From Deltaproteobacteria bacterium (GTDB taxonomy: Bacteria > JADJOY01), in the NCBI GenBank assembly GCA_016713535.1, contig JADJOY010000020.1, positions 42,900 to 106,899 on the forward strand: a stretch of 64,000 nucleotides of DNA, given 5' to 3'. Each line of letters begins with the position of its first letter. Position 1 is the first letter of the stretch. The notes under the pieces are model-generated. The model was not told where the DNA came from, did no database searches, and saw nothing but the letters and a program-made list of their open reading frames with translations. Positions 480 through 5,534 of the stretch are shown one piece after another. Position numbers and translations under genes: made by a program.

Positions 480-3400
480 ATGCTCTCCACCGCCATGCCC
501 CCCGATCACGTCACCGAACTCATCGGCGCCCGCTATCGCCCGCTCCGCGTTCTGGGCCGCGGCTCGATCGGCGAAGCGCTGCTCGTGGCGGACACCGTCG
601 CCGGTGACGCCGAGCGCGCCCTCAAGTGGATTCCCCTCCCACCACCGACCGCGACGGCGCGCTCCGGGGGCGCGGCCACCGACCCGGTCCTGGCGGCTCT
701 CGCGGGCGAGTTCCAGATCCTCGCCACCCTCGACCACCCTCACCTCACTCGCGTGTTCGACTTCGGCCACGACGCCGTCCGCGGCGGCTGGTACCTCGTC
801 GAGGAGTGCTCGAGCGGCACGCCCCTCGCGGCCGCCACGGCCCCCTCCCCGGCCCGCCCTGACCTGGTCCCCACCGCCCTGACGCGCCTCGCCGCGCAGC
901 TCCTCGAGACCCTCGCGTTCCTGCACGAGCGCGGCATCGTCCACGGCGACATCCAACCGGCGAACGTGCTCGTCGAGGATCGCGACGGCGCCTCGCACCT
1001 GCGCCTGATCGACTTCTCGGGCGCGCTCGCGCGCTGGCTGCCGAGCCGAGCCGCGACCGGCACCCCCGGCTTCATCGCCCCCGAGATCCTGGCCGGCGGC
1101 TCACCGAGCCCGGCGACCGACCTCTACTCCGCGGGTGCGCTGCTCACGAGCGTGCTGCCGGCGACCGGCTCGCCCGGCGCCGCGCTCACCGACCTGTGCG
1201 CTGGCCTCTGCCAGCTCGATCCGACGCTACGCCTGCGCAGCGCCCGCGACGCCGCGCGCATCCTCGGCGCCGACGACGCGCCCACGATCCACGCGACCAA
1301 CGTCGCCCAGGCGCCGCTCTTCGGCCGCGCCGACGAGCTCGCGGAGGCGACCACGCACCTCGCCCTCGCGAGCGACGCGACGACCCCACTCGGCGCGGCC
1401 CGGCTGGTCGTCACCGACGGCCCCGTCGGGATCGGCAAGAGCCGCTTCCTCGAGGAGCTCGAGACCCGCGCCCGCCTCGCCGGCCTGCCGGTCGTCCGCC
1501 TGCGCTCCGCCGCCGGCCACGAAAGCTTCTCGAGCGGCGGCGCGCTCCACGTTCTCGACCCCCTCCCCCATCCGGTCTCTCCCCTCGGCCGCGCCGTTCG
1601 CGCGCGCCTCGCCGAGAACGGCAGTGGCGCGACCCCGGTCCGCCTCGCGGGCGCGCCCGCCAGCGAGGACGACGCGCGCGCATGGCGCTCGTCGCTCACC
1701 GAGGAGCTCTCCTCCCGCTCGACGCTGTGGATCGACCTCGGCCCCCTCGACGAACCCGCTTGCGAGGCCCTGGCCGCGTGGGTGACACCCGCCGCCGACA
1801 GCGCCACCGCGCGCTCGTCGCTGGCGCGCCGCAGCGGCGGCAATCCGCTCTTGCTCCTCGAGCTCGCCAACGCGCGCGCCGCCGGCCACGACCTCCCCGA
1901 GCGCGGCCGCGGCGTCACCGCGCTCACCGACCGCATCCGCGCGCTCGCCACCGACGATCGCGCTTGCCTCGCCGCGCTCGCGATCCTCGACGACCCCGCG
2001 AGCGCCACCGAGCTCGGGTTCATCCTCGAGCGCACCCCGACCGACCTCCACGTTCGACTGCGCCAGCTCGAAGGCCACGGCCTGGTCCACGCCTCCGGCC
2101 GTGACGGCGGCCGCTGGCTACCGACCCACGGCCTCGCCGCGGAGGCGGCGCTCGCCACCGCCCCCGAGAGCGACCGCGCCACCTGGTACCGCCGCGCCGC
2201 CGAGGCGAGAGAGAGCGGCTGCCTGAGCGCCGACCCGCTCGCCCTCGCGCGCGACTGGCTGCGCGCACGCGAGCCACGCCGCGCCGTGGCCAGGCTCCAC
2301 GACGGCTGGCAGCCGCTCGCCCGCGACGGTCGACTCCACCTCACGGCGCCGCTCTGGTCGAGGCGGTCGATGCGCTCGCGCCGGGCGCGCTCGCGACCAC
2401 CGAGTGGCTGTTCCTGGCGCGTGCGCTCGAGCTCGTCGGCGAGCCGGAGGCGGCGCTCGAGTGCGCGGGCCGCGCCGAGCGCGCCGCCGACGCCCCGAGC
2501 GAGCCCGCGCTCGCCGGCTCGACCGCGGTGGCGCTGGTCCGCGCGACCGCGCTGCGCGCCCTGGGGCGCGTGCCGGACGCGATCGCGACGCTCGAGCGGC
2601 TGCCCGGGGCGAGCACCGCCGAGCCCGCGATCGTCGAGATGCGGATGCGCCTCTCGACCCTCGCCGGACGCCCGCTCGATGCCCTCGCCGCGGCCGACGC
2701 GAGCGAGGGCGATCCTGCGTCCGCGACCGCCCTCGCCGTGCAGATCGGCTACGCCCACCTGGCGCTCGGCCGGAACGACGCGGCGAGCACTTCGTTCCGG
2801 CGCGCGCTCGAAGCGCTCGACTCGTCGTCGGCGGCGGCGGCGCGCGCGCTCGCGGCGAGCGGGCTCGGCGTGATCGCGATGCACGCCGGCGATCACGCCT
2901 CCGCGGTGGGCCGGTTCCGGGATGCGCTCGGCGAGTCGGCGGGTGCCTCGAGCGCCCGCGAGCGCGCCGCGTACCGGCTCAACCTCGCGGCGGCGATGCA
3001 CGGTCTCGGCGAGCTGCTCCCGGCGCTCGCCGAATACGCGGAGGCGGCCGAGGAGCTGCGCGCCGCGGGAGCGTGGCGCGAGCTCGCCCACGCGCTCGCG
3101 GTGCGCGCCAGCCTGCTCGCGTTCCTGGGCGACCTGCGCGGCGCGCGCGCGCTCGCGACCGAGGCCTGCGAGGTGCTGCCGTCGGGCGCCGACGCGCAGG
3201 CCGGCATCGTGCCGTGGCTGGTGGCCGCCGAGTGCGCGCGCGAGGACGGCGACCTCGACGCCGCCGAGCGCGCCGCGCGCATCGTGATCGAGCGCGCCGC
3301 GCCGCGCTCCCGCGAGCGAGCGCTCGGCCAGCTCGTCCTGGCCGAGGCGGCGCGCCGCCGCGGCGACGGGCCCACCGCGCTCGCCGCCCTCGGCGACGCG

Positions 3401-5534
3401 CTCACCCTCGCCGCGAGCCTCGACGCCCGCGACATCCTCGCCCGCGCGTTCCTCGCGCGCGGCCGGGTGAGCACGCGCTCGCGCGCCGAGCGCGAGGCCG
3501 ACCTCTCGCTCGCCCTCACCACGTTCGCCGAGGCCCGCGAGCGCATCGGGCGCGCCGAGTCGGCGCTCGCGCTGGTCACGGCCATCGAGGATCAACCCGA
3601 GCAAGCCGCGCGCGTGAGCGAGCTGCGCACCCTGGCGCACGGCGAGATCCGCGAGCAGGCGCGCCGGGTGCCCGACCGCTACCGGCCGCTCTTCCTGCGC
3701 TCGCGCGGCTTCGATGCGCAGGTGCTCGAGCACGCCGACGCCCCGTCCCCGGCGGGCGCGGGCGCGGCGCGCGGCGGCGAGGGGCCGGCGGCGAGCGCGC
3801 GCGCGCTGCGCTCGGCCAATCGCACGCTCCTCGACGCGCGGCTCATGCGGGTGCTCGAGATCAATCGCCGTCTGGCGAGCGAGCGCGATCGCCAGCGGCT
3901 GCTCGAGCGCATCCTCGACAGCGCGATCGAGCTCGCCGAGGCCGAGCGCGGCTTCCTGGTGGTGAGCGACGGCGCCAACGTCGAGATCCCGGTGGCGCGC
4001 AACCTCGACCGCGAGACGCTCGGGCGGCCTGGCCACCTCATCAGTCGCACCATCGCCGAGAGCGTGCTGGAGCGCGGCGAGAGCTTCGACACCCCGGACG
4101 CGATGGCCGACGCGCGCCTCGCCAGCGCTGGCAGCGTCCGCGACCTGCGCGTGCGCTCGGTGCTGTGCGTGCCGTGCCGCGGCAACAAGGGCGTGGTCGG
4201 CGCCCTCTACCTCGACCACCGATTCTGGGCCGACGCCTTCGGCCCCGACGACCGCGTGCTGGTCGAGGCGATCGCCGACCAGGCCGCGATCGCCCTCGAG
4301 AACCTGCGCCTCGCCGACGAGCTCAAGCGGCGCAACGCCGAGCTCGAGACCGCGCAGCGCGGCCTCGAAGCGTCCAACCGCGAGCTCGCGCGCGAGGCCG
4401 AGGTCGAGCGCGCGGGTCGCCGCGTTCGAGGAGAAGCTCGAGCACGCCCAGCGCGAGAACGCGCTGCGCTACCGCTACGACCGCATCATCGGCCGGTCGC
4501 CCGCCATGCACGACGTCCTCAGGCTCGTGGACCGGGTCACGGACACGGACTCGACCGTGCTCGTCTACGGCGAGAGCGGCACCGGCAAGGAGCTGATCGC
4601 GCGCGCCATCCACTACAACGGTCCGCGCGCCCGGGCGCCGTTCGTGTCGCTCAACTGCGGCGCGCTCCCCGAGACGCTCCTCGAGGCGACGCTCTTCGGG
4701 CACCGCAAGGGTGCGTTCACCGGCGCCACCGAGACCCGCACCGGCCTCTTCGAGGAGGCCAACGGCGGGACGCTCTTCCTCGACGAGGTCGGCGACATGA
4801 GCCCGAGCATGCAGGTTCGGCTGCTGCGGGCGCTCCAGGAAGGCGAGATCCGGCCCGTCGGCGCGGACCGGCCGATCCAGGTCAACGTGCGCATCGTCGC
4901 CGCGACCCACCGCGACCTGCGCGACGAGGTGGCGAAGGGAAACTTTCGCCAGGACTTGCTCTATCGCCTGGAGGTGATCGTGCTGAGCTTGCCGCCGCTG
5001 CGCGAGCGCCGCGAGGACATCCCGCTCATCGCCGAGCACCTCCTGCGCGAGGCCGCCGAACGCGAGGGCAAGCGCGCCCCGACGCTCGCGCGTGGAGCGC
5101 TCGAGCTGCTCGTCACCCACGAGTGGCGCGGCAACGTGCGTGAGCTCTCGAGCGTGCTCGAGACGGCGCGCATCCTCTCCGGCGGCGAGGTGATCCAGGC
5201 CACCGACCTCGCCGCGAGCCCCGCGTTCCGGATGGTCGCGGCGTCCTCGGCCGGGGGAGGCTTGGATGGCTCGCGAGGCGTGGCGACGAGCGGCGACTTC
5301 CGCGAGCAGGTCCAGGCGTTCGAGCGAAAGGTCCTGAGCGACGCGCTCGACCGGGCGGCCGGTAACATGAGCGGCGCCGCGCGCGAGCTCGGCATGGACC
5401 GCGCGCAGATGTTCCGGTTGCTCAAGCGATACGAGATCGGCAAGTCTCCCGCCACCAAGGGCGGCGGGCGGGCGAGCCACGACGAGGAACCGCGCACCTG
5501 GCAGCTCTCCGGGAGCGCCCGACGGGAGACGTGA
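480..5534 (+). CDS. Giant one-component regulator: Ser/Thr protein kinase, P-loop NTPase (GPVGIGKS, STAND/AAA-like), TPR/helical region, GAF domain, sigma54-interaction AAA+ domain (GESGTGKE, GAFTGA) and Fis-type HTH. The reading frame breaks near 2340 and near 4410, giving ORF-track segments 66..2873, 2528..5143 and 4506..5534.
   Basis: Kinase motifs LGRGSIGEA, HGDIQPANVLV and DFSGA, then a Walker A in a STAND/AAA-like NTPase. The GAF region is followed by an NtrC-type AAA+ domain (VLVYGESGTGKE, FGHRKGAFTGA, RQDLLYRL) and a C-terminal HTH (ARELGMDRAQMFRLLKRY). Protein-like sequence continues across both frame junctions, and the sigma54 domain has no N-terminus of its own in frame (IIGRSPAM precedes the first Met). 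Start is ATG 480; GC3 collapses upstream of it. Confidence 0.7.

Follow-up and report, generated by a model that had tools for sequence, protein, structure and literature searches.

NifA and the related activators NorR and FhlA are sigma54 enhancer-binding proteins (EBPs) that are controlled by GAF domains, while in MalT and PknK, assembly is controlled by STAND and TPR modules. Proteins that combine a Ser/Thr kinase with an EBP are named “sigma 54-interacting transcriptional regulator” at NCBI, and such hybrids are reportedly mentioned in the genome and kinome papers on So ce56; the literature searched (full text) contained no experimental study of a kinase-EBP fusion. The present analysis concerns a locus on the plus strand of a 64-kb stretch of DNA (here called the window; 64,000 nucleotides of contig JADJOY010000020.1, deltaproteobacterial assembly GCA_016713535.1). 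On sequence grounds, the region from position 480 (or 339) to position 5534 of the window is one gene for a regulator of ~1,685 aa, currently spread over three reading frames, and the locus is probably a mis-assembled member of this known but uncharacterized family.

The GC content of the window (~75%) gives long open reading frames (ORFs) in every frame. Three-frame translation across the junctions resolves the plus strand from 480 to 5534 into one gene in three frame segments, with protein-like sequence running through both junctions and no stop or start codon at either. Segment 1 (480 to 2355, in the frame of nucleotide 480) encodes a Hanks-type kinase, a STAND-like P-loop, and a helical or winged-helix region. 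Segment 2 (2356 to 4414) is shifted by −1 and encodes a TPR array (~2732 to 3502) and a GAF domain (~3887 to 4297). Segment 3 (4415 to 5534) returns to the frame of nucleotide 480 and encodes the sigma54 AAA+ domain, an AAA lid, and a Fis-type helix-turn-helix (HTH), ending in the stop codon at 5532 to 5534. The original prediction had proposed a single ORF of roughly 1,680 aa interrupted by indels near 2340 and 4410, and alignment of the DNA to a related locus with 85% identity (L002) allowed both indels to be positioned. At the first break (2355/2356), one T is missing (CTCT-GG in the window and CTCTTGG in L002); the frame switch in a hidden Markov model (HMM) falls at 2354/2355, and no stop is found nearby. 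At the second break (4408 to 4415), a CG repeat has lost one CG dinucleotide (GAGCGCGCG--GGTC in the window and CAGCGCGCGCGGGTC in L002), a 2-nucleotide deletion placed at ~4412 to 4415.

As the window reads, the ORF is not intact; restoration of 1 and 2 nucleotides yields an ORF of 1,685 aa with no stops. The restored junction sequences (...HLTAPLLVEAVDAL... and ...EVERARVAAFEEKL...) agree with those of relatives, and restoration of the second break creates EVERARVAAF, of which ERARVAA is present in all relatives. The out-of-frame segment 2 is 85% identical to L002. The EBP piece has no N-terminus of its own, as had been suspected, because its first ATG (4506) comes after the Sigma54_activat domain has begun (4485) and falls within it.

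Related loci provide independent views of the same gene. Four orthologous loci from metagenome-assembled genomes (MAGs) were compared: L001/L005 (GCA_046331705.1, “bacterium STL-UNK1”), L002, L003, and L004, with identities to the window gene from 85% (L002) down to 67%. All are single ORFs rather than three proteins with stops at the same places, with uninterrupted frames of 1,744 (L001/L005), >1,246 (L002, to the contig edge), 1,749 (L003), and 1,681 (L004) codons. Among individual proteins, P0001 (1,737 aa) is 68% identical to the reconstructed protein with 99% coverage, P0002 (the L003 protein; 1,683 aa) is 67% identical, and homology to these two proteins covers 99% of the reconstruction. 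Dozens of further proteins of 1,400 to 1,775 aa with the same domain set also match. The genome scan supplied the closest relative (85%), and the metagenome scan returned only distant relatives with 35 to 41% identity; three ORFs of the window had no match in exact-protein look-ups. Synteny of the regulator with two downstream genes, g2 and g3, is kept in L001, L003, and L004.

The domain content proposed originally, namely, kinase, P-loop NTPase, TPR or helical region, GAF domain, NtrC-type sigma54 activator with GAFTGA, and Fis HTH, was recovered in full by Pfam and motif searches, except that AAA_16 itself has no Pfam match in the window protein. Pfam places Pkinase (PF00069; E = 8e-24; 84.8 bits against a cutoff of 31.7) at ~537 to 1157, TPR_12/TPR_MalT (the TPR_MalT match being weak) over the TPR array, GAF (E = 5e-14) at ~3887 to 4297, Sigma54_activat (PF00158; E = 3e-71; profile positions 1 to 167 of 168) at 4485 to 4985, AAA_lid_14 at 5001 to 5216, and HTH_8 (E = 2e-9) at 5316 to 5432. 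In the EBP domain, GESGTGKE (Walker A, 4569 to 4592), GAFTGA (4710 to 4727), and LFLDEV are all found, with Walker B at 4773 to 4790. In L003 (P0002), GAFPGA stands in place of GAFTGA at residue ~1483. L004 seems at first to have lost Walker A and GAFTGA, but the region is a run of N, and the deletion was rejected.

The two N-terminal nucleotide-binding modules depart from their models. The kinase keeps the Gly-rich loop (LGRGSIG, 552 to 572), the β3 Lys (ALKW, within 615 to 629), the αC Glu (GEF), the catalytic Asp, the Mg-binding Asn, the Asp of DF(S) (DFS, within 1008 to 1019), and APE. Its catalytic loop reads HGDIQPAN (942 to 965), with Gln where HRDxKxxN would have Lys; the same substitution is present in L001, L003, and L004, and distant homologues mostly have HGDxKPxN, with a few carrying Ser or Thr at the Lys position. 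With Gln at the Lys position, the kinase may be only weakly active or serve chiefly as a nucleotide-binding scaffold. The STAND-like P-loop (GPVGIGKS, 1419 to 1442) retains Walker A, and its region can be aligned collinearly to homologue P0003 (AAA_16 being among the precomputed domains of the latter), with gaps at the position of the P0003 Walker B; compared with this AAA_16-bearing homologue, the module is shortened around Walker B.

The joining of a kinase to an EBP had been regarded as an unusual architecture, a view that the protein search overturns: the fusion is common in myxobacteria-like genomes. The search used 90%-identity cluster representatives (8,000 candidates scored, 110 matches), and 57 of the 110 matches contain both PF00069 and PF00158, many of them also AAA_16, TPR, GAF, and HTH_8. 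Matches with both domains come from Sorangium, Polyangiaceae, Sandaracinus, Byssovorax, and Acidobacteria. The C-terminal 535 residues form what is, by sequence, a complete NifA-type GAF-AAA+-HTH module: residues 1120 to 1654 match the NifA model TIGR01817 at positions 2 to 529 of 534, and the best PDB matches are ZraR, NifA (chain 9qq6), and FleQ. The regulator is nevertheless not NifA, because its score against this model (377 bits) falls below the equivalog cutoff (528.85), and the resemblance is one of architecture alone. The N-terminal ~1,100 residues presumably follow the PknK/MalT-like STAND layout known for that family; two matches in the protein search (P0063 and P0075) are named PknK.

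Two candidate sigma54 −24/−12 promoters were found on the plus strand. The first (GGTACGGAACCTGC, 262 to 275) lies before the regulator, in a block that reads CGGTACGGAACCTGCC in the window (261 to 276) and TGGTACGRAAAATGCG in L001, L003, and L004. The second (GGTACGACGGCTGC, 7365 to 7378) precedes g3, with 101 nucleotides between its 3′ end and the ATG at 7479 (115 nucleotides when measured from the 16-nucleotide match at 7364). Upstream of g3, CGGYACGRCGRCTGCA is the sole strongly conserved block, located 115 to 119 nucleotides from the start codon in the window, L001, and L004, and the remainder of the intergenic region is divergent; the element itself is CGGCACGRCGRCTGCA in L001 and L004, 118 to 119 nucleotides before their start codons. 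The pattern GGYACG-N4-HTGC has exactly two matches on both strands of the 64 kb, and these are the two elements at 262 to 275 and 7365 to 7378. Sigma54-like promoters had been expected before both downstream genes; this stands for g3 (at 7479), which has the conserved element, and not for g2 (at 5539), which abuts the regulator and has no −24/−12 element, the TGGCAG near 5500 having no GC at −12. The second conserved element instead precedes the regulator itself and, because of that position, suggests autoregulation. No sigma70 promoters, terminators, or Rfam families were detected in 1 to 9500, a scan of the whole window at the Rfam gathering threshold returned no family, and rpoN is not encoded within the window.

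Whether the two breaks are errors or biology was approached by scanning the whole window with a frame plot based on GC content at third codon positions (GC3) and a 7-state HMM, each direct same-strand frame switch being inspected. The window contains at least eight indel frameshifts in six genes. Besides the two in the regulator, alignment to L002 locates two on the plus strand in the adjacent gene g2 (5539 to 6920), at 5672 (+1 nucleotide) and 6087 (−2 nucleotides). Four others, none with a stop or start nearby, lie in a gene for a TPR protein (~13893), a fatty-acid hydroxylase-like gene (~40597), a gene for an FG-GAP-like repeat protein (~50720), and a minus-strand gene fusing Biopterin_H to 4-hydroxyphenylpyruvate dioxygenase (HPPD) (~47040), where the Biopterin_H domain is split across frames. 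Every lesion seen in the window is an indel, with no in-frame nonsense lesions and no insertion sequence (IS) insertions among them; an in-frame stop at 36559 was rejected as a lesion and is the real boundary of two genes in the same frame. As the frameshifts are not specific to the regulator, their likely cause shifts toward sequence error. The ratios of nonsynonymous to synonymous substitution rates (Ka/Ks) relative to L002 are 0.25, 0.28, and 0.23 for regulator segments 1, 2, and 3, so that constraint on the out-of-frame segment 2 is not relaxed, and GC3 stays at ~0.95 right after each break. Errors in the assembly consensus, rather than biology, are therefore favored as the source of the two breaks (with a probability of about 0.65), because the lesions are indels only, are spread over unrelated genes, and show no signal of decay.

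Several observations weigh against the reading of an intact, promoter-controlled regulator that was merely mis-assembled. Four of the eight frameshifts fall within 2356 to 6087, about 10% of the window (binomial p ~0.005 under uniform error). A locally poor assembly would account for this clustering, but local decay of the regulator-g2 operon would do so equally well. Among the four pinned indels, two are 2-nucleotide deletions, a kind less typical of homopolymer-type read errors. Given the substitution of Gln for Lys and the shortened Walker B, catalysis by the kinase and by the STAND NTPase is uncertain as far as sequence can tell. On the promoter side, the sigma54 consensus TGGCAC-N5-TTGC with 2 mismatches has 46 matches in the whole window against 44.5 expected, and thus no enrichment, no enhancer site was identified, and the two promoter regions have no 8- to 10-mers in common.

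The first of these points bear on the possibility that the frameshifts are real and that the regulator and the co-transcribed g2 are recently inactivated pseudogenes, possibly in a genome that accumulates them. We regard this as the less likely explanation, although one to be taken seriously: two lesions in each of two adjacent genes would be an improbable cluster under uniform error, the CG repeat at the second break is a plausible site of replication slippage, and the module varies by lineage, with g3 missing from L002, an altered GAFTGA motif in L003, and no N-terminus on g3 of L003. A decaying gene would be hard to reconcile with a uniform Ka/Ks of ~0.25 and a restored ORF with no stops or further lesions, and the four unrelated genes broken in like manner elsewhere in the window, the restriction to indels with zero nonsense or IS lesions, and the undisturbed GC3 after each break also speak for error. 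If the frameshifts are real, translation from 480 would stop at 2873 and yield only the kinase and P-loop portion plus an out-of-frame tail, lacking the EBP, and the strain would be a natural knockout of a sigma54 circuit.

Two further explanations would leave the breaks functional or make them gene boundaries, and both were rejected, since relatives are unbroken and the junctions have no start, stop, or slippery signals. The ORF finder does report overlapping ORFs (66 to 2873, 2528 to 5143, and 4506 to 5534) that could correspond to three separate genes for a kinase/NTPase, a TPR-GAF protein, and a stand-alone EBP from ATG 4506; such an arrangement is very improbable when homology to single-ORF relatives crosses both junctions, the junctions have no stop codons, the first available starts (GTG 2528 and ATG 4506) lie deep in conserved sequence, and ATG 4506 is not preceded by a Shine-Dalgarno-like sequence. 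More improbable still is that programmed ribosomal frameshifting, or phase switching at the CG repeat, alternates between a kinase-only product and the full regulator. The short CG repeat at the second break and the joint restoration of frame by both breaks are all that recommend it, and the repeat has only 3 to 4 units, a slippery heptamer is found at neither site, similar breaks affect unrelated genes, and nothing is conserved, every relative being unbroken at either position. The three-frame appearance of the locus is thus most likely an assembly artifact, and caution is called for: at least five further genes of the 64 kb are broken in this assembly, a pattern suggesting that indels are a problem throughout it.

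If the reconstructed regulator is functional, we predict, by analogy with GAF-controlled EBPs (NifA, NorR, and FhlA) and with STAND/TPR-controlled assembly (MalT and PknK), that it would act as a cytoplasmic “one-component” sigma54 activator. Its input would be a PknK/MalT-like module made up of the Hanks-type kinase, the reduced STAND P-loop, the winged-helix region, and the TPR array. The kinase, TPR, and GAF parts would keep the AAA+ domain inactive pending a ligand or phosphorylation signal, upon which the AAA+ domain might form hexamers, hydrolyze ATP, and open sigma54 promoters. The likely targets would be the elements at 262 to 275, which would drive its own operon including g2 (positive autoregulation), and at 7365 to 7378, which would drive the DUF5666 lipoprotein gene g3. 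The regulatory logic is inferred from these analogous systems; autoregulation and competence of the kinase are inferences as well. The most specific combination, in which the HGDIQPAN/DFS kinase and the reduced P-loop are noncatalytic sensors that allosterically gate a NifA-like activator, the activator serves a positively autoregulated sigma54 circuit (262 to 275 and 7365 to 7378), and both deletions are genuine, is unlikely to hold in all its parts.

The true start of the regulator (339 or 480) is uncertain because the 47 codons from 339 to 479 have low GC3 (only 0.5 to 0.64, compared with ~0.95 in the gene body) and contain near-invariant DNA blocks. This plus-strand leader, a possible N-terminal extension, opens with an invariant ATG (ATCATGATTACAAT) at 339 that is in frame with the kinase and stop-free in all four loci, and an AGGA-like sequence lies upstream of ATG 480. 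The blocks (CGTTGAC..CAAC.CGTTGC..TTCGACATCTGT..ATTCCC) are nearly invariant across four loci that are otherwise 67 to 85% identical, and the leader has no Rfam family match. It could be a coding N-terminal extension that overlaps a regulatory DNA or RNA element.

Both downstream genes are on the plus strand, and their products are lipoprotein-like: a Cys follows the signal peptide, the linkers are rich in G/S/D, and the domains are Big_5 or DUF5666. The g2 product combines an Ig-like domain (Big_5) with a repeat tail rich in G/S/D. Its gene is read in three frames (tblastn with the L001 orthologue), and the second g2 break, where the third frame piece starts, coincides exactly with the beginning of the Big_5 match (profile position 18). 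Since g2 begins 4 nucleotides past the regulator stop and has no −24/−12 element, the two genes are probably co-transcribed; the L001 orthologue of g2 overlaps the regulator stop by ATGA. The g3 product (7479 to 9176) has three DUF5666 domains (Pfam E = 4e-46) and a CarboxypepD_reg-like domain, and its upstream element makes it a probable sigma54 target. In L002 (4953 to 5136), g3 is absent altogether, and g3 of L003 (~9140 to 9260) has no promoter region or signal peptide.

A GTGA-N6-TCAC palindrome (7308 to 7321, plus strand) precedes the g3 promoter. Similar to a CRP-type or TGT-N10-AC site, it is a candidate operator or enhancer, and L001 and L004 have comparable palindromes upstream of g3, although at a different distance. 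The window has five such palindromes (7308, 30640, 32342, 38917, and 58153) against 0.57 expected; four are intergenic, and as a set they look like sites for a CRP/FNR-type global regulator.

Elsewhere in the window, an intergenic repeat of ~80 nucleotides is present in three copies (20540 to 20680 on the minus strand and 37550 to 37690 and 48226 to 48366 on the plus strand; core, CGACGGGGGATGGAACCCCCGTCGCTACGAT...TCGTAGCGCGGGGGGCTCCGCCCCCCCGC). Its fold is a nested hairpin of very high stability (−66 kcal/mol; z = −6.45), and the repeat has no Rfam family match and looks like a repetitive extragenic palindromic or miniature inverted-repeat transposable element. The frameshifted Biopterin_H-HPPD gene (44603 to 47483, minus strand) encodes a biopterin-dependent aromatic amino-acid hydroxylase domain fused through a long linker to HPPD (Glyoxalase_5 and Glyoxalase). 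It joins two steps of tyrosine/phenylalanine catabolism, a fusion that may be unusual.

Large myxobacteria-like genomes abound in proteins that join a Ser/Thr kinase to a sigma54 activator. The window locus and the four orthologous loci form a compact, testable unit, consisting of the regulator, two adjacent lipoprotein genes, and two conserved −24/−12 promoters, in which the coupling of Ser/Thr-kinase-type input to sigma54 transcription could be studied.

Compared with known systems, the regulator is closest to the kinase-bearing “sigma 54-interacting transcriptional regulator” proteins (Pkinase-AAA_16-TPR-GAF-Sigma54_activat-HTH_8), such as those of Sorangium sp. (So ce388, So ce291, and So ce693), Polyangiaceae, Sandaracinus, and Acidobacteria MAGs, with which it shares the domain order and a similar length (about 1,500 to 1,750 aa); to proteins from Sorangium, Polyangiaceae, and metagenomes, its identity is 38 to 46% over at most half the length. 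Unlike these distant fusion relatives, the clade of the window gene has a shortened P-loop with no Pfam AAA_16 and a Gln for the catalytic-loop Lys, and the window gene itself is frameshifted twice. With NifA (and the related NorR and FhlA), it shares the GAF domain, the sigma54 AAA+ domain with GAFTGA, and the Fis-type HTH, but it has no nif context and carries ~1,100 extra N-terminal residues (kinase, P-loop, and TPR). With PknK-type STAND kinases and MalT, it shares a kinase and a P-loop NTPase followed by TPR or MalT-like repeats; in contrast to these, its Walker B region is reduced, and its output is a sigma54 AAA+ activator rather than a LuxR-type HTH or a separate substrate.

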